This document shows, piece after piece, positions 1 through 43,426 of a stretch of DNA of 43,426 nucleotides. Every line of letters starts with the position of its first letter. Position 1 is the first letter of the stretch. The DNA is taken from the IMG/VR virus record IMGVR_UViG_3300044957_000820, positions 1 to 43,426 of that record, one strand, 5' to 3'. The notes under the pieces are model-generated. The model did no database searches and was not told where the DNA came from. It saw only the letters and a program-made list of their open reading frames with translations. This stretch comes from a virus (lineage: Duplodnaviria; Caudoviricetes). Both the position numbers and the translations under genes were made by a program.

Positions 1-65
1 GAACGCGTGAAGCGCACGTGGCAGTGCGTCGTGTTCGGCGAGTCGATGCGGATGTCGAGTTCCAT
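1..65 (-). CDS. 5' part of a small early gene, truncated by window edge (MELDIRIDSPNTTHCHVRFTR...)
   Basis: ATG at 65 on minus strand, 11 nt downstream of HDV-like ribozyme A; open to the window edge; same CACACAC-ATG context as the gene starting at 42912. Confidence 0.55.
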   Translation of the reverse strand, partial: MELDIRIDSPNTTHCHVRFTR

Positions 66-76
66 GTGTGTGAGTG

Positions 77-142
77 GAGACCTTGGCCGTCGCGACGTGC
101 GACGTTTCCAGCAGCACCACGCGGAGGTGGTCTCGTGCTGCC
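77..142 (-). ncRNA. HDV-like self-cleaving ribozyme (copy A)
   Basis: Minus strand reads GGCAGC-AC-GAGACC-ACC-UCCGCGU-GGU-GCUGCU-GG-AAA-CGUCGC-ACGUC-GCGACG-GCCAA-GGUCUC. This maps to P1 (6 bp, G1.U wobble), P2, P3, L3 with UCC, P1.1 GG, P4 and J4/2 with the catalytic C, as in the HDV antigenomic ribozyme. Confidence 0.85.
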
Positions 143-167
143 ATGCGTGCCCCTGGCACGCGATCAG

Positions 168-578
168 TCAGACGCACTCCTCGTAGTTGGAGGCCGCTTC
201 GGTGTTGCCGACGGACAGGCTCGCGAGGAGTCTCGACCCGAGCGGCGAGCTTTCGCGCGGAAGCAGCAGGTTGACGTTGCCGCTGTAGCCGATGAGGTTC
301 TTCGCGTAGCGGCCACCGCCGGTCTCCTTCTCTTCCACGTTGACCTCCACGGAGAGGTCGTCGGCCTGAGCTTCGGCGATCGGGCCCGGCAGCGTCACCG
401 TGTACTGGTCCTCGAAGTCGAAGCACTTGAGTTCCTGGCCGCAGTCGGCGCAGTTGCGCGAGACGTGAACGGTCACGGTGATCTCGACGGTGTCTTCTTC
501 GATGCTGTCGATGCTCGCGTCGGTGTCGGTGATCTCGGTTTCGAGGGAGACGAACTTGTTGCAGTCAGGGCAGCGCAT
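168..578 (-). CDS. acidic hypothetical protein with CxxC...CxxC zinc-binding motifs
   Basis: 136-aa ORF with CPDC and CADC motifs; typical codon usage; flanked by the two HDV-like ribozymes. Confidence 0.75.
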   Translation of the reverse strand: MRCPDCNKFVSLETEITDTDASIDSIEEDTVEITVTVHVSRNCADCGQELKCFDFEDQYTVTLPGPIAEAQADDLSVEVNVEEKETGGGRYAKNLIGYSGNVNLLLPRESSPLGSRLLASLSVGNTEAASNYEECV

Positions 579-593
579 GGTCGTGTGTGGGGT

Positions 594-662
594 GAGATCG
601 TTGGTCGCAGCGACGTGCTGCGCTTCCAGGCGACACCACGTGGAGGTGATCTCGTGTCGCCC
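594..662 (-). ncRNA. HDV-like self-cleaving ribozyme (copy B)
   Basis: Minus strand reads GGGCGAC-AC-GAGAUC-ACC-UCCACGU-GGU-GUCGCCU-GG-AAG-CGCAGC-ACGUC-GCUGCG-ACCAAC-GAUCUC. Canonical 7-bp P1 with G1.U; compensatory changes versus copy A in P1, P2 and P4. Confidence 0.9.
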
Positions 663-872
663 ATGGCGACCCAGGTCGGTGCTTCCGTCCTGAGCGAGCG
701 CGTCGTTGCCTCCGCACTCAGTCGCCCCGCTTCACTGCGATAACCGGCCACCTTGTGGGTGGTCAGCCGGGGCCTCGGCGCGCGTTCTCTCGCGCGCACA
801 GCACGCGCGAGGGTCTCTCGCGCGGCGTCGCTCTCGTTGTCAGCGGTCGTTCGCTTCACAGCGATCGACCAT
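663..872 (-). ncRNA. structured 5' leader / putative small RNA upstream of ribozyme B
   Basis: ~210 nt with several hairpins, a duplicated AUCGC(U/A)GUGAAGCG stem-loop, and a CG-GA-G-GCAA-C-GA-CG tandem-GA/GNRA hairpin; no convincing ORF. Confidence 0.45.
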
Positions 873-879
873 GGATGCA

Positions 880-907
880 ATCATCTCACAATCGGCTGCA
901 GATGCAA
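880..907 (-). promoter_or_regulatory. putative sigma70-type leftward early promoter
   Basis: TTGCAT (907-902), 16-nt spacer, GATGAT (885-880) in a locally AT-richer patch between the divergent operons. Confidence 0.4.
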
Positions 908-1047
908 GCATTTGTGACCTCCGCAACTGCTGGAAGATCCAGCACTTGCGGCGACGCCCGCGCTGGGGGCCTACTGGAAGGGCCCTCGGGGCCGTCTGGG
1001 GACGTTCAGACGGGGCGGCTTCGGGGGCACCGGAAGCAGGCGAGAAA

Positions 1048-1780: not shown

Positions 1781-3198
1781 CGCATCGCATCCGCGGTGGG
1801 CCGGCGAAGCTCTTCACGAGCACGCAAGCGCGCGCTGCGAAGGGCGGCGTGCACAAGGTGCTGCTCGATGGCCCCGCGGGCACGGGCAAGAGCTTCGGCA
1901 TCCTCGCGTACCTCACGTGGCTGTCGAGCGTGTACGACGGACTGCGCGTGCTCGTCGTGCGCCAGACGCGCGCCTCGCTGACCGAGAGCGCGTGCGCCAC
2001 CCTGGCCCGCGTGCTCGGCGACGGACATCCGGCACTGCAGGGCGCTGGCGCGAACAACCGCGACAGCTACGACATCGAGAAGGCGCACTGGTCGCTCGGG
2101 TCACTCGAGCATCCCGACCGGCTCTACTCGACCGACTGGGACGTGGTGTACGTGCAGGAAGCGCGTGAGATCGCGCACGAGTCGTGGCTCAAGTTCAGCC
2201 GCGCGCTGCGCTCGAACCGCATGCCGTTCCAGCTGCTGCTCGCGGACACGAACCCCGACGCCGAGGATCACTGGCTCAACGTCTCGTGCTCCGACCTGGG
2301 CGGCGACATCGAGCGCATCCGCTGCTACCACACGGACAACCCGATGCTGTGGGACGCCGAGCGCGAGGAGTGGACGACGTTCGGCGCCGGCTTCGTGCAG
2401 AACCTCGCGGCGCTGCCGGGCTATCTGCGCAAGCAGCTGTACGAGGGCATCTGGTGCTCGGCTGAGGGTTCGGTGCTTCCGCAGTACCAGCGCGAGCGTC
2501 ACTGCGTCGACGCGATCCCGCACGGCGCGAAGATCGCGTACCACTTCGGTGCGCTCGACTGGGGCTGGACTGACGCGCAGGTCATGCAGATGTGGGCGGT
2601 CACCGAGGCGATGCGCATGTACCGCGTCGCTGAGATCTACCGCACCAACGAGAACAGCGACTGGTGGGGCGATCGCGTTGTCGAGATGCGCCAGGAGTTC
2701 AAGCCGGTGCGCTTCGTCGCTGACCCCTCGAGGCCCGAGTCGATCGATCTGCTCAACGCGCGCCTCGGCTCACGCGGCACGTCACAGATCGTGATCCCGG
2801 CCGACAACAAGCGCGCGACGACAGGCGTCGGCGACCTGGGTGGCATCGACGTGATGCGCTCGATGTTCGAGCGCAATCAGATCTTCTTCGTGCGCAACGC
2901 GAACCGGCACATCGACGAGCAGCTCCGCTCGAAGCGCATGCCGTGGTGCACGGAGATGGAGCTGCCCGGCGTCGTGCACGAGCGCGACCGTGTCACCGGC
3001 CGCATCCTCGACCGCGTGAAGCAGGGCATCCCCGACCACGGCTTCGACACCACGCGCTACGCGGCGAAGTTCGTGCACACGTACAAGCTCGCGCCGAAGC
3101 AGCAGAACGTGCAGACGTACAAGGCCGGATCTTGGGGCGATCGACTGCGTCACGCTGATGTGCATGAGCGCCTGATGGAGGTCGAACTCGATGTTTGA
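1777..3198 (+). CDS. terL: terminase large subunit
   Basis: Walker A GPAGTGKS, Walker B-like VVYVQEA, DTNP coupling motif, nuclease motifs ALDWGW and DHGFDTTRY. Confidence 0.93.
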   Translation: MTHRIRGGPAKLFTSTQARAAKGGVHKVLLDGPAGTGKSFGILAYLTWLSSVYDGLRVLVVRQTRASLTESACATLARVLGDGHPALQGAGANNRDSYDIEKAHWSLGSLEHPDRLYSTDWDVVYVQEAREIAHESWLKFSRALRSNRMPFQLLLADTNPDAEDHWLNVSCSDLGGDIERIRCYHTDNPMLWDAEREEWTTFGAGFVQNLAALPGYLRKQLYEGIWCSAEGSVLPQYQRERHCVDAIPHGAKIAYHFGALDWGWTDAQVMQMWAVTEAMRMYRVAEIYRTNENSDWWGDRVVEMRQEFKPVRFVADPSRPESIDLLNARLGSRGTSQIVIPADNKRATTGVGDLGGIDVMRSMFERNQIFFVRNANRHIDEQLRSKRMPWCTEMELPGVVHERDRVTGRILDRVKQGIPDHGFDTTRYAAKFVHTYKLAPKQQNVQTYKAGSWGDRLRHADVHERLMEVELDV

Positions 3199-5038
3199 CA
3201 TCAGCCCGAACAACCTCGCGCGCGAGCGTGATCAGGCGCGCGAGACGATCAAGGCGCACCTCGACTCGCTCGATGATTCGGTCGATCGCTACGTCGGCCG
3301 TCACTACGGGCGATCGCGCGTCACGAAGAAGTACCAGCCAGAGAACCACGAGTACGAGTTCGTCTCGCTCATGGTGCCGCGGCTCGTGTTCGCGAATCCG
3401 AAGGTGAAGGTCACCACGCGCAGGCTCGGCAAACCCGCGATCGTGGCCCGCTCGATGCACCACGGCATGAACCGCTGGGTCGAGGACGAGGGCTACAAGT
3501 CGACGTTGCGCACGATCTGCGTCGACTTCCTGCTGCGCTGGGGCGTGTCGATCACGCTGCCCAAGCAGCGCAAGGGCCGCGGCAAGATCCCCAAGCCTGA
3601 CGGCAGCACGAGCGAGTTCCCGTGGGTGCCGACAACGAAGCGCCTCTCGACGCGTGACGTGTACTGGGACACGCTCGCAACCGACCGCTCCGACCTCGCG
3701 TTCATCGGGCACCGCATCACGCGCTACAAGGACGACGTGCTGCGCGAGGCGCGCGAGAACCCACAGATGGGTTGGAACGTGAGCGCGATCGAGTCCGTCC
3801 CCGTCAATCGCAAGGACGATGAGCCGCGGAACGAGCGGCGTGACCGCGGCGAGATCACGTACGACGTGATCTGGGTGCGGCACCACAGGCTCGAGGGCAA
3901 GCCAGGGCCGGAAGAGGGCTTCAACGGCGTCGTCTGCACGATCGCGACAGGCAGCGGCGGCGACAACGTTGAGCTGCGCGAGCCGTTCCCGTGCTACTGC
4001 CCGCCGTGGGGTCCGTACACGTTCTACGGCGCGCACGTCGTGCCGGACGAGACGATCCCGCTGAGCCCCGTCGTTCCCGTGCTTGGTCAGGTCGAGGAGC
4101 TGAACGCGGCGGCGCGTGCGTACCGCGAAAGCGTGAAGCGGCGTAAGAAGATCGGCGTCACGAACTCGATCGAGGAGAAGATCGGGCTCAAGTTCCAGAA
4201 GGCTCGCGACGGCGACGTGATTGACATCGCCGGCTTCATGAAGGACATGATCGCCGAGATCGAACTCGGCGGCCCGAGCGCGGATCAGGCGTACGCGATC
4301 GAGATGTTCAAGCGCACGCTGGCGAACATCAGCGGCATCGACGATGCGCAGCGCGGCGCAGTGACCGGGCGCGGCACTGCGACCGAGAACGCGATCGCGA
4401 GCCAGAACGCCGGCGTGCGCACAAACGGCATCAACGACGCGTGGACCGACGCGGTCGCGTCGAACCTGAAGACGGTCGCGTGGTATCTGTTCCACGACAA
4501 CCGCGTGGCGATGCCTGTTGGCCCCGAGGCCGCGATGGAACTCGGCATTCCGCCTGAGATCGGCGAAGACGGCGCGATCTACATGCCCGACCCGTGGCTG
4601 CACGGCGGCATGCACGAGGAGCTGAGCGGCTTCGCGTTCGAGGACCTCGAGCTGTGCATCGAGCCGTACTCGATGGAGCGCACGAGTGAGGGGCGCCAGC
4701 AGCAGCAGCTGGACTTCCTGCTGCGCTTCGCTCTCGAGGTCGCGCCGGCGATCCCGATGAATCCGCACGTGCGCTGGCAGGAGTGGATGCAGGCTGCGAG
4801 CGATCTCGCGAACCAGCCGCTGTTCGCGCGCATCGTCGACATGAACGTCGCGTCTCAGATGTCGCAGATGGGCATGGCGCTTCAAGTGCAAGAGGCCCAG
4901 GCGAAGTCCGAGGGCCCGAAGCAGGAGGCGTACCAGGGCAGCGCGAAGCCATCGATCGTGATCCCGCCGGGCGCTGCGCGCGGCGGCAGAAGCACGCCTG
5001 CGAGCGGTGCGAAGGAGAAGTCGAAGAGTGCTGTATGA
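3191..5038 (+). CDS. portal protein
   Basis: 615 aa directly after terL; portal-like segment ISGIDDAQRG...TATEN; Q-rich C-terminal region. Confidence 0.85.
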   Translation: MFDISPNNLARERDQARETIKAHLDSLDDSVDRYVGRHYGRSRVTKKYQPENHEYEFVSLMVPRLVFANPKVKVTTRRLGKPAIVARSMHHGMNRWVEDEGYKSTLRTICVDFLLRWGVSITLPKQRKGRGKIPKPDGSTSEFPWVPTTKRLSTRDVYWDTLATDRSDLAFIGHRITRYKDDVLREARENPQMGWNVSAIESVPVNRKDDEPRNERRDRGEITYDVIWVRHHRLEGKPGPEEGFNGVVCTIATGSGGDNVELREPFPCYCPPWGPYTFYGAHVVPDETIPLSPVVPVLGQVEELNAAARAYRESVKRRKKIGVTNSIEEKIGLKFQKARDGDVIDIAGFMKDMIAEIELGGPSADQAYAIEMFKRTLANISGIDDAQRGAVTGRGTATENAIASQNAGVRTNGINDAWTDAVASNLKTVAWYLFHDNRVAMPVGPEAAMELGIPPEIGEDGAIYMPDPWLHGGMHEELSGFAFEDLELCIEPYSMERTSEGRQQQQLDFLLRFALEVAPAIPMNPHVRWQEWMQAASDLANQPLFARIVDMNVASQMSQMGMALQVQEAQAKSEGPKQEAYQGSAKPSIVIPPGAARGGRSTPASGAKEKSKSAV

Positions 5039-5366: not shown

Positions 5367-6234
5367 GTCGAAGCCGCTCGAGCGCACCGCGGCGCAAGTC
5401 ACCATGGGTGGCTTGCCGCTCGACGAGACCGCGACGCGCGCCGCGTTCGACAGGCTCTTCAACGCAGCGCCAGACACGCGCGCGCAGCAGGCCAACCTGC
5501 TGGAGAGCACCATGAAGACCACGCCGGCGGACCAACAGCCGCCGGCGCAGCCCGGGAAGTCTCTGAAGGGAACAGCCGACTACGACAAGGCGGTCAAGGC
5601 CCTGGAACTCGACGGGATTCCGAAGGCGCTGCTGGAGTCTTGGCCGGAGGAGAAGATCGTCGAGATCGGTCTCCACCGCTCCAAGGTTCACGCAGACGTG
5701 GACAGCAAGCTGAACGGCGCCAAGCCGAAGACCGAAGAGAAGGCACAGTCGCAGGAGCAGACCGACGCGAAGGCGCTCGGGCTGACGGACGCGGCCAAGG
5801 CCCTCTACGAGGAAGTCGGCGAGGACACCGGCAAGCTGCTGACCGGCTACCTGGAGCAGGCGATCAGGGCGGAAGGAGCCAAGCTCATCGAGCAGTTCCA
5901 GTCCGCACTGATGAGCCTGCACATGGAGCGGTTGCAGGAGAAGCTCGGCGTCGAGTCGAGCACGTGGGGCAAGGTCGTCGAGCAGATGGGCGTGCTGTCG
6001 GAGACCGGTCGCTACAGCGACCTGGATTCCCTGGCACGCGATGCCATGAAGCTCGTCGGCCACGCCCCTCAACCGTCGCGTGATTCGCGCGCGACGGCTT
6101 CGCCAGAGGTGCCTTCGGCGCGTGCGCGCCCGCAGCCTCTCACGTTGGAAGAGCGCGAGAAGGCGGCCTTTTTCGAGCTGCTGAACTCGCGCGACGTGGA
6201 CACGGCGAAGCGGACGTTCCAGCGGACCTCCTGA
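5335..6234 (+). CDS. capsid scaffolding protein (putative)
   Basis: Helical, charged 299-aa protein immediately upstream of the capsid gene. Confidence 0.7.
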   Translation: MTQEQSTSTAESKPLERTAAQVTMGGLPLDETATRAAFDRLFNAAPDTRAQQANLLESTMKTTPADQQPPAQPGKSLKGTADYDKAVKALELDGIPKALLESWPEEKIVEIGLHRSKVHADVDSKLNGAKPKTEEKAQSQEQTDAKALGLTDAAKALYEEVGEDTGKLLTGYLEQAIRAEGAKLIEQFQSALMSLHMERLQEKLGVESSTWGKVVEQMGVLSETGRYSDLDSLARDAMKLVGHAPQPSRDSRATASPEVPSARARPQPLTLEEREKAAFFELLNSRDVDTAKRTFQRTS

Positions 6235-6248
6235 ACTGAGGAATCCAA

Positions 6249-7415
6249 ATGCCCAGCCTGAATCTCTTCACCGACTTCGTCCTGACGACTGGCGAGGCCA
6301 TCGCGACCGGCGCCGACCAGATCGTCTACGACGTGACGAAGAACACCTACTTCCTGCGTCGCATGATCGAAGGCAAGTCCAAGGAGGTCATTCTCCAGGG
6401 CGGCGACAAGATCAAGGACCAGATCATGCTGTCGCTCACCTCGACGCGGCAGCACTACAACCCGAACGAGCCCGTCGACTACATCAACCCGCAGAACCTC
6501 ACCGAGTGGGAGATTCCGTGGCGGTTCACCATCGACCACATGTCGTGGACCGACCAGGAGACCCAGCTCAACGAGGGCGGGATGACGCGCGAAGCGATGT
6601 TCGCGACGTACAAGCGCCTCAAGAGCATCAAGCAGGGCCGCCTGTGGCTCTCGATGATCAACGGCCAGGAGGAAGACCTCTGGGCCGCGCCGGTCAAGGC
6701 CGACATGGAGGACACCGGCTCGCTGACGCCGAAGCCGTACAGCATCCCCGCGTTCGTGAACGAGTTCGCGAACGGCCTGTACGTCTCCAGCAACACCGGC
6801 CAGTGGACGACGAAGATGGGCATCAACCCGTCGACGTACTCGGCCTGGAAGCCGCAGCGCGTTCTGTACGGCTCCGACTACGCCTCGGCCACGGACAACA
6901 CGTGGCAGGTCTGGGGTTCGCTGGACGAGATGGCGCACCTGCTCCAGTTCGACCAGCTTCCGATCCACCCCGAGTACAGCGAGAAGCGCAGCGGCAACGC
7001 CCTCTACGCGTGCTCGAAGTACGCGCGGAAGGAAGTCATGCGCGCCCTCCGTGTCGGCCAGGACCTGTTCCTCGGCAACCGCCAGGACGGCGCCTACCCG
7101 AACCCGATGTACGACGGCATCGAGTTCGTCTACGTCAGCGAGCTGAACGACAAGGCGCTGTACCCGACCGACCTCACTCCGAGCACCAGCGAGGCGCTCG
7201 TGATCGAGACGGCGGCTTCTCTCGATGGTCCGCGCTTCTACGCGCTGAACCTCGACTACCTCGTCCCGTTCTGGCACACGGAGCGGTACTTCAAGTTCCT
7301 CCAGCCCGATCGTCCGCTCAACCAGCCGACGACCACCGTGCTGCCCGTCGACATGTGGCACAACATCGGGTGCCGCTCGCTTCGCCACCAGGGAATCCTC
7401 GCGCCCGGCGCGTGA
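6249..7415 (+). CDS. major capsid protein
   Basis: 388 aa, GAGGA RBS, strongly biased codon use, GGDKIKDQI and terminal RHQGIL motifs typical of HK97-fold capsids; synteny. Confidence 0.85.
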   Translation: MPSLNLFTDFVLTTGEAIATGADQIVYDVTKNTYFLRRMIEGKSKEVILQGGDKIKDQIMLSLTSTRQHYNPNEPVDYINPQNLTEWEIPWRFTIDHMSWTDQETQLNEGGMTREAMFATYKRLKSIKQGRLWLSMINGQEEDLWAAPVKADMEDTGSLTPKPYSIPAFVNEFANGLYVSSNTGQWTTKMGINPSTYSAWKPQRVLYGSDYASATDNTWQVWGSLDEMAHLLQFDQLPIHPEYSEKRSGNALYACSKYARKEVMRALRVGQDLFLGNRQDGAYPNPMYDGIEFVYVSELNDKALYPTDLTPSTSEALVIETAASLDGPRFYALNLDYLVPFWHTERYFKFLQPDRPLNQPTTTVLPVDMWHNIGCRSLRHQGILAPGA

Positions 7416-25273: not shown

Positions 25274-25647
25274 TGGCGCGCGCTGCCTCAAAGGCTCCGG
25301 CCACAGCCGTTCTCGCCGGCGACCCCGAGGGTAACCTCGTCGAGATCACCCAGACGGCCACGCCTGGGAACCAGCTCTACGAGGTGCAGGCCGTTGGGGC
25401 TGTCCGCGACCGCGTCCGCATCTACGCGACGAACAACTCCAGCGCGGCTGTCGATCTGACGATCGAGTGGATGGGCACGACCAACGCCGACAAGATCGTC
25501 GTTAGCGTACCCCCGAAGAACGGGCTCGAACTCGTGGCTGAGGGCTGGGTGCGTAACGCCAGCACTGGCTCGAAGGCCACGATCGCGGCGTTCGCCGCAT
25601 CGGCGAGTGTGATCAACGTGCACGTGGTTGCGGAGAGCGAGCGATGA
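25273..25647 (+). CDS. small beta-rich hypothetical protein
   Basis: 124 aa, translationally coupled on both sides. Confidence 0.65.
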   Translation: MARAASKAPATAVLAGDPEGNLVEITQTATPGNQLYEVQAVGAVRDRVRIYATNNSSAAVDLTIEWMGTTNADKIVVSVPPKNGLELVAEGWVRNASTGSKATIAAFAASASVINVHVVAESER

Positions 25648-26996
25648 CGAAGGTCGTGATCATCTGCGCGGACGACCTGGGCCGCGAGCAGTTCCAGAGC
25701 TACGGCATCGGCGGGATCACTGGCCCCCTGGGCGTCGCGTACCCGGACCTGAGCGAGATCGAGGCGCTGAAGACGAACGGGGTCCGCCTTACGAACTTCT
25801 ACGTGCACGCCTTCTGCTCGCCAACGCGCGCCTCCGAGATCACCGGGCTGTGGCCGGGGAACAGCGGTGTCGGCAACATCATCGAGAACAACAACACGGC
25901 CCCGCTTGTCGAGTCCAATCTGTGCCTCCCCGAGCTTCTGGGCCGCCTGAATCCAGGCATCCGGCGCGCGACGATCGGCAAACTGCACCTCTCGAACCAG
26001 CAGAACGGCGACACCGATGCCTATCGGCGCATGGGGTTCGAGTTCTGGAACGGGTCGCTTCGCAATCTGCCGATCGTGACCAACAGCTACACGACCTACA
26101 GCTACTACGTGAACGGCGAGCTGCGCCGTGCGTACGACTACTGGGCGACACGGAAAACGACTGACGACGCGATTCGCTACCTGCGGAAGTACGCCAACGA
26201 TGACGTGTACTTGCGCGTCTGCTACAACGCGCCGCACGAGCCGTTCCAGCGCCCTCCGGCCGGCACGTACGACAGCGTCACGTGGGTCTGTCCTGACGAG
26301 TACCCCGTGAACCAGACTGTGACCGCGACGATCAGGCCGTACTTCAAGGCCATGTGCGAGAACCTGAGCTATGAGATCGGGCGGCTGCTTGCTGAGATCG
26401 ACTTCGGCGACACACTTGTCTTCTTCTTCGCCGACAACGGAACAGCGACGATCCCCGTTGCCGGCGAGTACAACGGTGTTTCGGGTGCCTATTGGGACGG
26501 GCGAACCAAGCGCACCGTCTATGATGGCGGCATTCGCATCCCAGCATTCGCGCGCGGCTACGGAATCAACAACACGAATCGTGACATCACTCAGCTCGTG
26601 TCTGTGGTCGACCTTTTCCCGACGATCCTCGACCTGTTCGGCCTAAGTCTCCCCGAGACAGCCAGAATCGATGGGCAGAGCTTCACTCATCTGCTCGAGG
26701 ACGCGCCCGGCACCGACCGCCAGTACCTCCTGAGCGAGATCTTTGGCCCAGAGAATGGGCCGAACGCCGGAACGACCGACGGGCGCAGGGCCGTGCGCAG
26801 CGCCACGCACAAGCTGATCTGGATCGACGAAGCCATCGCGGATGGTCCGTCGGAGTTCTACAACCTGAACAGCGACCCCATGGAGTTGACGAACCTGCTC
26901 CCTGGGCCGCTTTCTCCGACGGACCTCGCCGAGTACAACGCGATGATCAACTGGCTGTCTACGCAGTGGTGGGCGAGTCAAGCAGGGCAGACCTGA
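25644..26996 (+). CDS. Cys-type (formylglycine-dependent) sulfatase
   Basis: ADDLG, CSPTRASEITG (CxPxR), GKLHL, YNAPHEP, FADNG, K..YDGGIRIP, VDLFPT, DGQSF, EFYNLNSDPMELTNL. Confidence 0.93.
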   Translation: MTKVVIICADDLGREQFQSYGIGGITGPLGVAYPDLSEIEALKTNGVRLTNFYVHAFCSPTRASEITGLWPGNSGVGNIIENNNTAPLVESNLCLPELLGRLNPGIRRATIGKLHLSNQQNGDTDAYRRMGFEFWNGSLRNLPIVTNSYTTYSYYVNGELRRAYDYWATRKTTDDAIRYLRKYANDDVYLRVCYNAPHEPFQRPPAGTYDSVTWVCPDEYPVNQTVTATIRPYFKAMCENLSYEIGRLLAEIDFGDTLVFFFADNGTATIPVAGEYNGVSGAYWDGRTKRTVYDGGIRIPAFARGYGINNTNRDITQLVSVVDLFPTILDLFGLSLPETARIDGQSFTHLLEDAPGTDRQYLLSEIFGPENGPNAGTTDGRRAVRSATHKLIWIDEAIADGPSEFYNLNSDPMELTNLLPGPLSPTDLAEYNAMINWLSTQWWASQAGQT

Positions 26997-40957: not shown

Positions 40958-41102
40958 AGAATCGCGTGTTTCCCTCGGCTTTTTCAGCGTTCAGTGGGGG
41001 AGTGGGGGTTTTTTTTTCTCCTTACGTGAAGAAAAAAAAAGAAGAGCCCTCACGTCACATATAAGGGGCCTGGATTTACCCCCACCACCCCCACTCCCCC
41101 AC
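40915..41102. repeat. putative replication origin: GTGGGGG iteron-like inverted repeats around a T9/A9 core
   Basis: Perfect 15-bp inverted repeat 40994-41008 / 41088-41102; seven GTGGGGG/CCCCCAC copies; the most AT-rich patch seen in the window. Confidence 0.65.
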
Positions 41103-41104
41103 CG

Positions 41105-41166
41105 GACACGAAGCCGCCCGCCCCCTGGCCCGCGGCGAGCGCGGGGTCGGGAGCGGGCGGCGTGTC
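41105..41166. terminator. long GC hairpin where rightward and leftward transcription converge
   Basis: GACACG..GCCGCCCGC...GCGGGCGGCGTGTC. Confidence 0.45.
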
Positions 41167-41368
41167 AGCGCCGTCGAGGGCGCGGGCCGGGAGAGAGCTT
41201 GGGCGGGGCCTCCTGGGTCGCCTGGATGCGCGCTCGCGAGAGCGCGCGGGTCACGAGAGCCTGGACGGTCACCCCCTGGCGCGCGGCCTCGATGCGCAGG
41301 CCGTTCGCCAGGGGACGCGGGAGCCGGACGGTCACCGCTACGAGATCGTGCTCGCGGAGAAGGGCCAC
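41165..41368 (-). CDS. ribbon-helix-helix DNA-binding protein
   Basis: AVTVRLPRPLANGLRIEAARQGVTVQALVTRAL; GGAGG RBS. Confidence 0.8.
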   Translation of the reverse strand: MALLREHDLVAVTVRLPRPLANGLRIEAARQGVTVQALVTRALSRARIQATQEAPPKLSPGPRPRRR

Positions 41369-41676
41369 GCGATCACCTCCTCCCAGGCTCGCAGGTCGCC
41401 TCGAAAGGCGCTTGCGTCCACGTCGGCACGGACACTGCCGAACCAGATGCTGTCGGCGTCGAGACGCCAGAGGCTCGGCCAGTCCTCAGGGTTCTGGGCG
41501 TGGTAGGCGCGCAGCAGCTTCAGGAAGCGCGGGGAGACTGTCACGGAGAGCGTGTTCTCCATCGCGTGCACCGTGTTGAGTGCAGTGCAGAACGCGAGCG
41601 TTGCCGCTTCGAGCCTGCGCATGTAGAGCCACAGCAGAACTGCAGCCAGTGCGAAACCAATCGGGATTGCGATCAT
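41338..41676 (-). CDS. hypothetical membrane protein
   Basis: N-terminal hydrophobic helix; coupled to neighbours. Confidence 0.55.
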   Translation of the reverse strand: MIAIPIGFALAAVLLWLYMRRLEAATLAFCTALNTVHAMENTLSVTVSPRFLKLLRAYHAQNPEDWPSLWRLDADSIWFGSVRADVDASAFRGDLRAWEEVIAWPFSASTIS

Positions 41677-41882
41677 CGCTTCAGGTTCTCCAGGTGCGCT
41701 CGCAGTGCGGGCGCGAGTGTGAGGTCGAGCTTCGCAGCTTCAGCTGCGATCGCGTTCAGAAGGTCGAGACGCACGCGCTCGATGAGCACGTGCGTCTTCG
41801 GGATGGCGACGAGTGGCTCGCCGCTCAGCGCGCGCTTGACGTTGTCGAGCACGCGCTCGATGCGCTCGAGGCGGTCATCCAT
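41673..41882 (-). CDS. hypothetical early protein
   Basis: 69 aa, overlapping starts and stops. Confidence 0.6.
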   Translation of the reverse strand: MDDRLERIERVLDNVKRALSGEPLVAIPKTHVLIERVRLDLLNAIAAEAAKLDLTLAPALRAHLENLKR

Positions 41883-42093
41883 TGTCTGGGTGACCCCCGT
41901 GTGTGTTCAGCAACTGCACGATCGAGCCGCGCTTCGGCTCGATCACGAGGAGCGAGACATCGAACGAGCGATCGCTCGGGTCCTTGCGCTTCCAGCCGTG
42001 CGCGTGTGCGAGCGCCGCGCGCTTCGAGGTGAAGTACACGAACCCCAGGCTCGAGTCTGCTTTGCTTCTCAGGTTGACCTTGTAGATCTTCAT
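41875..42093 (-). CDS. hypothetical early protein
   Basis: ATG at 42093 (MKIYKVNL) overlapping the upstream stop. Confidence 0.6.
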   Translation of the reverse strand: MKIYKVNLRSKADSSLGFVYFTSKRAALAHAHGWKRKDPSDRSFDVSLLVIEPKRGSIVQLLNTHGGHPDNG

Positions 42094-42431
42094 GTGAACA
42101 GTCCGCTCTTCAGGGCGTCCTCGTGACACTCATCGCAGAACTCGACCGTCGCGTTCTGCATGTCGACGCGCTGCGAGAGGACGGTCGCAGAGCGCACGCA
42201 CATGCCCTGGCACGCAGGGCACTCCGGGTCTTCGCACTTGCATCGCGACTCCACCTCTCGCTTCAGGCTGGAGAAGAGCGCGGGGTTGCGTGCGATCACG
42301 TTGGTCTCGACGGCGACAGCGTCGCCGACCATCTGCCAGCTCTCGGGCTGGACAGCTTCGATGAGGCGCTCGCGTTCGAGCGGCGTTTCTGGGATGAGCA
42401 GCGTGATGCTGCCTTCGAGTTGGAACTTCAT
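42090..42431 (-). CDS. hypothetical early protein with Cys-rich C-terminus
   Basis: ATG at 42431; CKCEDPECPAC...C...FCDEC. Confidence 0.65.
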   Translation of the reverse strand: MKFQLEGSITLLIPETPLERERLIEAVQPESWQMVGDAVAVETNVIARNPALFSSLKREVESRCKCEDPECPACQGMCVRSATVLSQRVDMQNATVEFCDECHEDALKSGLFT

Positions 42432-42685
42432 GGCTTCCAGTTCAGCCGTGCGAGTTCGCGCGGCGCAGGCGTTCCGGCGGGGTGATGGATGAAGAAGCCG
42501 CAGTCGTCGAGGGAGCTGCCGGGCGCGACCTCGTAGACGATGCAGGCGGTCTTGGAGGAGATCGTCGTGCCGAGCTTCTTCAGCTTGGCACGCGCTTCCT
42601 CGAACGTGTCGGCTCGCGACCACGTGCGGTCGCTGGTGATGAGCATGACTTCGCGGTCGGGCTGGAGGATGAACTCGATCTTCAC
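42428..42685 (-). CDS. hypothetical early protein
   Basis: GTG at 42685 with GGAGG RBS. Confidence 0.6.
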   Translation of the reverse strand: MKIEFILQPDREVMLITSDRTWSRADTFEEARAKLKKLGTTISSKTACIVYEVAPGSSLDDCGFFIHHPAGTPAPRELARLNWKP

Positions 42686-42912
42686 GCGAGTGCCTCCACC
42701 TGCTTGCGGTTGAGGACGGCGACCTGCGTGTTCCGCTTGTATCGGAACTGAAGCGACTGCCACGAGCGGTCGTTCAGCAGGTCGGTGATGTTCGCGTAGG
42801 TCGTGCCGGACGGCGAGTTGAGGACGAAGTCCTTCTTCGCTTTGAAGTCGGCGAGGAGTGCCTTCTTCGAGGTGTAGTCACGGCCGTAGGCCGGGGTGAA
42901 GACGAGATGCAT
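42682..42912 (-). CDS. small phage early protein (PAYGRDY motif)
   Basis: MHLVFTPAYGRDYTSKKALLADFKAKKDF; AAGGA upstream. Confidence 0.7.
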   Translation of the reverse strand: MHLVFTPAYGRDYTSKKALLADFKAKKDFVLNSPSGTTYANITDLLNDRSWQSLQFRYKRNTQVAVLNRKQVEALA

Positions 42913-42925
42913 GTGTGTGTCCTTT

Positions 42926-42992
42926 TCTTCAGGGCGCACTGGCGCGCCGACGCCGACGCTGGAGTGCGCCGGCGTTTCGCCGCTCGCGCGGC
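42926..42992 (-). ncRNA. hammerhead-ribozyme-like element with atypical permutation
   Basis: GCCGC-GCGA-GCGGC, GAAA, 10-bp stem III, GUC site, stem I GGCGC/GCGCC, CUGAAGA. Confidence 0.55.
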
Positions 42993-43004
42993 GAACCCAC
43001 ACAG

Positions 43005-43205
43005 TCAGAGACGCTCGATGGCGTTGTTCGCGATGTAGTGCGTGACGGGCTCGTCGACCTCGATCACGCGAACGTCGCGCACTGCAGTCCACCGCATGGC
43101 GAGGTCGACTACGTAGCGGTCGGCCTCTTCTCTCGTGGCAAAGCGCAGTGAGTTGCCGACCCAGTTGTCTGAGCCGAAGACCTGGACCTCGGGCTTGAAG
43201 CTCAC
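43005..43205 (-). CDS. small phage early protein
   Basis: GTG at 43205 with GGAGG; SFKPEV...WVGNSLRFATREEA. Confidence 0.7.
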   Translation of the reverse strand: MSFKPEVQVFGSDNWVGNSLRFATREEADRYVVDLAMRWTAVRDVRVIEVDEPVTHYIANNAIERL

Positions 43206-43426
43206 AGCGCCCTCCGTGCCCGCACGGGCTCGACGGCGATGAGCGAGGTGACCTTGCCGCGCACGGTCGTGTACGTGGCTTCCTTCAGTGCCTCGATCGC
43301 GGTCTTCGCCGCGAGCTTCGTGGCTTCGGTGTCGAACGTCTCGGCCTCGCGCACGAGCGCCTCGATCGAGACGTTGTTGAGCTTCGAGAGCGCGCAGGCG
43401 AGCAGCTTCCACGGGTCGGCCTTCGC
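43202..43426 (-). CDS. 3' part of a hypothetical early gene (truncated by window edge)
   Basis: Open frame AKADPWKLLACALSKLNNVSIEALVREAE... with typical codon usage. Confidence 0.6.
   Translation of the reverse strand, partial: AKADPWKLLACALSKLNNVSIEALVREAETFDTEATKLAAKTAIEALKEATYTTVRGKVTSLIAVEPVRARRAL

Follow-up and report, generated by a model that had tools for sequence, protein, structure and literature searches.

Why would a phage place self-cleaving RNA motifs between the genes of a single operon? The reason for ribozyme clusters in phage operons has been a question since at least 2011 (PMC3088659), and a review calls their purpose undefined (PMC6765202). The window (i.e., the whole 43,426-nt stretch analyzed here) is the whole single-contig record of an uncultured phage, of ~66% GC, for which the only close relatives found were near-identical contigs (best terminase identity 42%; 31% among cultured phages). 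On its plus strand, terminase and virion genes are followed by an exonuclease, a Sak4-like protein, helicases and a primase-polymerase, while the minus strand carries a run of small ORFs without assigned function which begins near position 580, exits at position 1 and re-enters at 43426. A first-pass annotation had located two HDV-like ribozymes on the minus strand (662-594 and 142-77; hereafter Rz1 and Rz2), and had proposed that self-cleavage processes the early mRNA of the phage.

All of the helices claimed for the two segments were found where they had been placed: P1 (GGGCGAC/GUCGCCU in Rz1 vs GGCAGC/GCUGCU in Rz2; 7 bp and 6 bp, each opening with G.U), P2 (GAGAUC/GAUCUC vs GAGACC/GGUCUC; 6 bp each) and P4 (CGCAGC/GCUGCG vs CGUCGC/GCGACG; 6 bp each). 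Rz1 further has a 2-nt J1/2, a 3-bp P3, a 7-nt L3, the P1.1 GG at 627-626 and a 6-nt J4/2 with C604 as the catalytic C, and its predicted cut lies 5' of G662; in Rz2, J4/2 is 5 nt, the catalytic C is C86 and the predicted cut lies 5' of G142. Moreover, contig L008 joins the two ends of the window (one end aligns for 5,578 nt at 99.8% identity, the other for 633 nt at 100%), and a third ribozyme, Rz3, falls in the 1,389 nt of L008 that are absent from the window's own contig (Table 1). In all three, the nested double pseudoknot (P1/P2/P3/P1.1) is complete and the opening G is paired as G.U at the base of P1; the catalytic C of J4/2 with the A that follows it, and L3, align to the consensus of RF00094 and RF02682.

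Table 1. Predicted features of the ribozyme-bearing region (positions are those of the window unless prefixed by L008)
Feature	Position	Strand	Remarks
Structured non-coding leader, ~210 nt	663..873	-	Hairpin series; predicted 5' product of the Rz1 cut; 5' end guessed
Three-way junction (P0 of Rz1)	665..726	-	Closing helix 726-721/670-665; stops 2 nt before the Rz1 cut
Rz1, full-length (P4-containing) HDV-like ribozyme	594..662	-	Helix inspection and descriptor; partial Rfam RF01787 match
C/A-rich spacer before gene 1, 15 nt	579..593	-	C+A 0.93; anti-SD duplex +2.4 kcal/mol; no SD
Gene 1, 136 aa	168..578	-	Two CxxC pairs; homologs in 19 other viral loci start at the same Met
P0 hairpin of Rz2, 7 bp	145..161	-	Between gene 1 stop and Rz2 cut; stops 2 nt short of the cut
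Rz2, full-length HDV-like ribozyme	77..142	-	Helix inspection and descriptor; Rfam RF02682, 27.2 bits, below gathering score
C/A-rich spacer before gene 2, 11 nt	66..76	-	C+A 0.86; anti-SD duplex -3.2 kcal/mol; no SD
Gene 2 start	1..65	-	Truncated by contig end; 140 aa in L008
Stretch absent from the window	L008 5579-6967		Remainder of gene 2, genes 3-4, three-way junction, 75-nt cloverleaf (6659-6733), Rz3 (6734-6803), 14-nt C/A spacer, gene 5 start
Rz3, HDV-like ribozyme	L008 6734-6803	Same as unit	7-bp P1; own P2 and P4 sequences; core as Rz1/Rz2; predicted cut 5' of G6734
Hammerhead-like element	42913..43003	-	Core 42978-42926; Rfam RF02276, 23.1 bits vs gathering score 37
Downstream part of ribozyme-bearing unit	41338..43426	-	Small ORFs without assigned function, mostly overlapping, SD-led

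A descriptor requiring P1, P2, P3, P1.1, P4 and C-N-R-A with the catalytic C matched exactly twice across the two strands of the 43.4-kb window (Rz1 and Rz2) and not once in 200 dinucleotide shuffles of it; together with the helix check, this supports the HDV-like identity claimed at the outset. Among the three paralogs, the P1, P2 and P4 sequences diverge with every pair preserved, while the catalytic C, the opening G and the L3/P1.1 core are constant. In an eight-sequence alignment, 12 of 17 pairs were changed on both sides, a value matched by none of 500 shuffles; this test is partly circular because the alignment rows were chosen by the descriptor, and the three cassettes are not independent evidence because they are probably of common ancestry. 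Rz1 and Rz2 are intergenic, as the flanking genes have a GC3 of 0.90-0.94 and the overlapping shadow frames tested (GC3 0.43-0.73) are without that pattern. A chance pattern, or a by-product of SD sequences on the opposite strand, could be suspected since the ribozyme core includes an anti-SD-like stretch, matching 16S rRNA, whose plus-strand reading is GGAGGUG, and since most pattern matches in the collection scans did not meet the descriptor; however, the empty shuffles, the retention of four independent helices in three copies and the gene-like codon pattern on the minus strand make such an origin hardly credible.

Comparison with HDV models, a check suggested in the first-pass annotation, did return matches for Rz2 (RF02682: 27.2 bits vs a gathering score of 44; E 0.4 on the window and 0.028 on 3 kb) and Rz1 (RF01787: partial, 17.3 bits vs 37; E 4.6), and Rz3 matched RF00094 (35.8 bits vs 50; E 0.008), but none of the three reached the Rfam gathering cut-off. 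These sub-threshold scores reflect the library models, in which one pseudoknot helix is left out; a score above the cut-off is not what defines such a ribozyme biochemically. With the Rfam HDV-like families (RF00094, RF02682 and RF01787), Rz1-Rz3 share P1, P1.1, P2, P3, P4, the G at the cut, the L3 core and the catalytic C followed by A in J4/2; they differ in scoring below the cut-offs, in the 2-nt J1/2, in the 6-bp P1 of Rz2 and in occurring as three copies in one phage transcription unit. By every sequence feature tested, Rz1-Rz3 thus qualify as putative HDV-like ribozymes, and we predict with good confidence that at least Rz2 and Rz3 are catalytically active.

The three are not theta ribozymes, because P4 is present (6 bp in each, vs the minimal fold) and tRNA is absent: as the first-pass annotation had stated, no tRNA adjoins them, and none was found in the window or in L008. 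Like the theta ribozymes of gut phages, they are HDV-like, phage-encoded, intergenic and on the sense strand; unlike them, they are not minimal: theta ribozymes lack P4 and in many cases cut at a tRNA 3' end, within 5 nt of it in the tRNA-associated subgroup (PMC10879173). The theta survey counts 526 non-tRNA matches, 493 of them non-coding, and assigns no role to these; of the matches in non-coding regions, most lie over 200 nt from an ORF, whereas each ribozyme here directly precedes a protein gene, as had been noted earlier, at 11-15 nt from its AUG (PMC10879173).

We infer that the minus-strand genes on both contig ends form one transcription unit. This unit is probably expressed early, a label that derives from gene content only (small genes without assigned function and divergence from the packaging operon). 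Within ~2.6 kb (L008 4917-7470), four cut sites are predicted, three HDV-like and one hammerhead-like, all on the same strand in gaps between genes; cleavage at these would yield pieces of ~210, ~520, ~1,300 and ~710 nt (or longer), and then the rest. On the ribozyme strand, the search for a sigma-70 consensus promoter was negative. Window positions 855-910 form a divergent promoter region, in which a sigma-70-like site at ~855-884 faces the plus strand and overlaps, by eye, a weak minus-strand extended -10 as well as a 7-nt direct repeat whose copies are 27 nt apart.

The same order of elements recurs at the three HDV-like sites: a helix able to close 1-2 nt 5' of the cut (a three-way junction for Rz1, a 7-bp hairpin for Rz2 and a four-way cloverleaf for Rz3), the ribozyme, a C/A spacer of 11-15 nt, and the AUG. 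An SD is present in 42 of 62 window ORFs and absent before the three HDV-led genes. Gene 5, which follows Rz3 after a 14-nt C/A spacer, has an anti-SD duplex of -0.1 kcal/mol, and at the eight other starts of the unit that are not preceded by a ribozyme the duplex is -3.8 to -15.2 kcal/mol. In pre-start C+A content, the three HDV-led genes rank within the top four of 65 distinct ORFs (a set that includes some shadow ORFs). In E. coli, CA tails strongly enhance initiation and act as ribosome standby elements (PMC5934652). One plain explanation of the SD-less leaders is that they may follow from the ribozymes themselves, because a nearby SD could misfold the anti-SD-like core. Two other ideas were not borne out: i) that cleavage opens the start site, as folding predicts no gain in accessibility from precursor to product (0.69/0.58, 0.66/0.65 and 0.80/0.82), which counts against the processing reading favored below; and ii) that an AUG spanning the cut serves as start codon, as AU precedes G1 in nine of the 21 unrelated matches listed and the resulting frames lack a gene-like codon pattern. 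The pairing probability of Rz2 P1 was 0.84 when free and 0.17 with a modelled ribosome footprint, but is not robust (0.34 free with a longer flank). On the same predicted cleavage product as Rz2, gene 3 has a very strong SD (L008 5918-5927), to which 10 nt of the Rz2 core (5450-5459) are complementary; this may be chance, given the anti-SD-like core.

On balance, and with some reservation, we favor the reading that self-cleavage during transcription splits the polycistronic phage RNA into end-protected, independently translated mRNAs. The unit would be transcribed from a promoter near 900-875; Mg2+-dependent cleavage would occur 5' of G662, G142 and L008 G6734; downstream pieces would then carry a 5'-OH and a compact knot at their start, upstream pieces a hairpin with a cyclic phosphate at their end; and the single-stranded CA spacer would attract ribosomes instead of an SD. 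RNA ends of either kind, 5'-OH with a knot or hairpin with cyclic phosphate, are poor nuclease substrates.

The generality of such sites was surveyed in 452 loci, where at least 154 descriptor matches reduced to 24 non-redundant ones (three from this phage), a biased sample partly dominated by one gut-phage family. Among the non-redundant matches listed, four adjoin tRNA 3' ends, nine lie in tRNA clusters and eight have no tRNA nearby, the remainder being the three of this phage; two further non-tRNA HDV loci were added by hand, giving ten. Controls with substitutions of the catalytic C (154 vs 30, 4 and 4) were not used: the C was already part of the scan patterns, which biases the comparison. 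A hairpin ending 0-5 nt before the cut and within the 5th percentile of locus controls was found at seven of the ten unrelated non-tRNA HDV loci listed (five of eight without the hand-added two). By this short-hairpin test, only Rz3 passes among the three of this phage: Rz1 has no short hairpin, and the Rz2 P0 hairpin (-11.4 kcal/mol) lies at the 17th percentile, which is not significant alone. A helix likewise closes immediately 5' of the ribozyme in the twister P0 hairpin (PMC11662667). An SD is present in five of the seven unrelated non-tRNA loci listed that have an ORF within 60 nt; the SD-less leader is a trait of this phage, not of the ribozyme family.

As for the recurrence of the arrangement in related contigs, the third copy in L008 bears it out, while homologous genes elsewhere do so poorly: a recognized ribozyme lies directly upstream of the gene 1 homolog in one of 19 other loci, and no HDV match was found near gene 5 homologs in 85 loci (gene 1 itself has no PHROG or Pfam match). 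The single case, L014, has a twister-P5 (57.6 bits, above the Rfam cut-off) directly before the gene 1 homolog, with a type I hammerhead 1.2 kb upstream. Same-strand series were also seen in L001 (three type II hammerheads and a minimal HDV-like motif at 2455-4270 (+), between small ORFs and with no tRNA), G004 (two twisters and an HDV) and G001 (an HDV and a twister). Thus four unrelated phages carry mixed hammerhead/twister/HDV series, the last three of which were found via the HDV core. The loose twister pattern yielded many false matches, so that only full-motif matches were counted; the twister-P1-like motifs of G001 and G004 are based on inspection and were not reported by Rfam at gathering score. 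No second ribozyme was recognized in G002 or G003 (for G003, other classes were scanned for in 40 of its 100 kb). As judged from these sequences, the ribozymes appear to behave as interchangeable cassettes tied to a type of gene region rather than to one gene, and the use of comparable sites by unrelated classes suggests that cleavage is the activity they have in common.

That patchy occurrence before homologous genes would also suit folded insulators or stabilizers with no need for cleavage, or mobile cassettes tolerated in intergenic gaps, and the 76% identity of Rz1 and Rz3 (across 75 nt, spacer included) fits duplication. We consider both improbable, because, in all three copies, the helices drift while the invariant core named above (catalytic C, opening G, L3/P1.1) does not, and because unrelated ribozyme classes share such sites.

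A different purpose is suggested by the RNA upstream of the cuts. The gap before Rz3 (L008 6594-6733) holds a predicted three-way junction (z -3.78) and then the 75-nt cloverleaf, a four-way junction (z -5.67; none of 200 shuffles equally stable) that ends one unpaired base before the Rz3 cut. It carries a 7-nt loop resembling a T-loop and a 5-nt loop containing GG, the likeness of both loops to tRNA being our own judgement. The cloverleaf was rejected as a tRNA: its acceptor and T-like stems total 14 bp (usually 12-13), a proper anticodon loop is missing, ARAGORN (default settings) and Rfam (E<=10) were negative, and blastn gave no useful match. The leader before Rz1 is likewise structured (z -4.45 at 870-730 and -3.34 at 730-663), and it matched no Rfam family at E<=10 and no phage sequence by blastn. 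The ribozymes could therefore chiefly define the 3' ends of structured non-coding RNAs (the 210-nt leader and the 75-nt cloverleaf), as theta ribozymes do for tRNAs: the cloverleaf is stable, tRNA-sized and almost abuts the Rz3 cut, the leader is structured throughout, and P4-containing HDV-like ribozymes with the same core adjoin tRNA 3' ends in the four non-redundant matches mentioned above. On the other hand, the cloverleaf escaped ARAGORN and Rfam, is without tRNA-like dimensions and has no homologs that were found; no second cut would release its 5' end; and only a plain hairpin lies upstream of Rz2. We regard this purpose as rather unlikely.

Segment 670-665 of the leader has two possible partners, namely the upstream strand (closing P0) or the 5' strand of Rz1 P1 (661-656), with which it is predicted to form an inhibitory hairpin across the cut. 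The anti-P1 fold and the P1-containing folds lie within ~1 kcal/mol (-141.9 vs -141.1 and -140.8; the pseudoknot is outside the model). In pseudoknot-free folding, the inhibitory hairpin prevails with the full-length leader (0.58-0.96) until the P1 3' strand is synthesized, while P0 prevails over it when the leader is trimmed at -109. These models offer a lead that Rz1 may be slowed or switchable through the alternative hairpin. Complementarity of the P0 3' strand to the ribozyme core gave p ~0.03 for Rz1, as one of 26 tests; as a general antisense rule it was rejected (Rz2, 0.18; Rz3, 0.20). In the genomic HDV ribozyme, flanking control by P(-1)/Alt1 is known (PMC6097654): there, too, upstream sequence either misfolds the ribozyme or is sequestered, but the Rz1 competitor pairs with P1 across the cut and not with P2 (PMC6097654).

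This near-balance of folds bears on the opposite effect of cleavage, i.e., that it lowers expression in the manner of glmS, the new ends triggering decay and timing gene shut-off with Rz1 as the regulated step. Cleavage of glmS does lead to mRNA degradation, and 3' UTR ribozymes alter expression (PMC6765202). Yet protection is the better fit for new 3' ends that would close in a hairpin and new 5' ends that would start in a compact knot, and no sign of a ligand or regulator was seen for a decay model, which leaves this effect unlikely.

The fourth predicted site of the unit, ~700 nt downstream of Rz3, has an intact hammerhead core (GAAA from 42978, the GUC triplet, and CUGAAGA at 42932-42926; predicted cut after C42949), a 10-bp stem III and a stem I of up to 7 bp. 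A canonical type II hammerhead was rejected: the open stem II has 0 bp, and the 10.1-11.1 position after A9 is a C opposite an A. The lowest-energy fold of the region (-51.6) buries the GAA in a hairpin, and an open-core fold (-51.4) is equally stable. In the latter, an upstream 5-bp tetraloop hairpin (42992-42979) stands as stem II, and a 10-bp fourth helix is inserted between A9 and G10.1; it begins directly after the upstream stop codon and is predicted to pair with the CA spacer that precedes the following gene (ATG 42912). The complementarity gave p 0.018 by shuffle and 0.0007 vs the locus, and the modelled helix possibly masks the CA leader of that gene. The element may equally be a decayed type II hammerhead. 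A viroid hammerhead tolerates a one-base insertion at the A9/G10.1 position (PMC3705267). No second convincing hammerhead of such topology was found in the 2.0 Mb of loci scanned, a literature search found no description of a fourth helix between A9 and G10.1, and blastn gave no useful match to the region.

A more elaborate scheme can be assembled from these parts: a cassette for cleavage-licensed, SD-independent translation at three sites, with Rz1 as an on/off switch, a third cut that ends a tRNA-mimic cloverleaf, and an active hammerhead of new topology, with three hairpin stems and a fourth helix masking the CA leader until cleavage. Taken together, this scheme is doubtful; if true, it would give ribozyme-driven translation initiation a counterpart in bacteria and add a new permutation to the hammerheads. 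Ribozymes just upstream of start codons without the usual initiation signal are known from the ribozyme-assisted translation of retrotransposons and of RNA viruses from fungi and plants, which is eukaryotic and cap-independent (PMC6765202, PMC13725137), whereas the bacterial SD-independent analogue here is putative.

Ribozyme processing of mRNA, put forward in the first-pass annotation, had in fact been proposed for phages before, and shown in vitro for hammerheads (PMC3088659; reviewed in PMC6765202). The clustered phage hammerheads described in 2011 cut 2-kb native polycistronic transcripts in vitro, and the 5' end of a halovirus early mRNA maps no more than 3 nt from a hammerhead cut located 13 nt ahead of a start codon (PMC3088659). 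As here, the clustered prophage hammerheads and bacterial clusters comprise several ribozymes flanking single genes or short blocks of varying identity, processing of long transcripts has been proposed for them, and the ribozyme class appears interchangeable; the present unit differs in that it repeats a full-length HDV fold, followed by genes that lack an SD (PMC3088659, PMC6765202). A literature search of openly accessible main texts yielded no case in which full-length HDV ribozymes recur together with SD-less leaders; subscription papers or supplements may mention one, and the tables of non-tRNA and minimal ribozymes in the theta paper may contain similar gene-linked cases (PMC10879173). 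Thus the arrangement itself is known, and the less usual aspects are the threefold full-length HDV ribozyme, the SD-less leaders, the predicted bistable Rz1, the cloverleaf at the third cut and the possible four-helix hammerhead.

Within 2.6 kb, the unit provides three natural paralogs plus a fourth site. Because its ribozyme-led genes are SD-less and their coupled neighbors SD-led, one reporter series could separate the stability, insulation, translation and decay models. Judged from sequence, the role of full-length HDV-like ribozymes in phages would widen from trimming tRNAs to punctuating mRNA, and they could provide compact natural parts for expression insulators.

Several further observations were made. 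In the window, the non-coding gap between the primase and the end of the minus-strand unit (40989-41161) contains A and T runs enclosed by a 21-nt inverted repeat (90%), together with a 22-nt GC hairpin, and is a candidate replication origin and terminator; a sulfatase-family gene (PF00884, E 6e-32) at 25644-26996 (+) lies between the virion and replication modules. Among the surveyed loci, P4-retaining HDV-like ribozymes at L095 2486, L105 2484, L122 286 and L123 367 are predicted to cut at tRNA 3' ends, a theta-like position without the minimal fold. One Ignavibacteria genome bin also has the HDV core pattern on three of its contigs (L259, L264 and L335; L259 matches the full descriptor), and at L073 2485-2681 (+) a tandem pair of HDV-like ribozymes 127 nt apart lies within a tRNA cluster.
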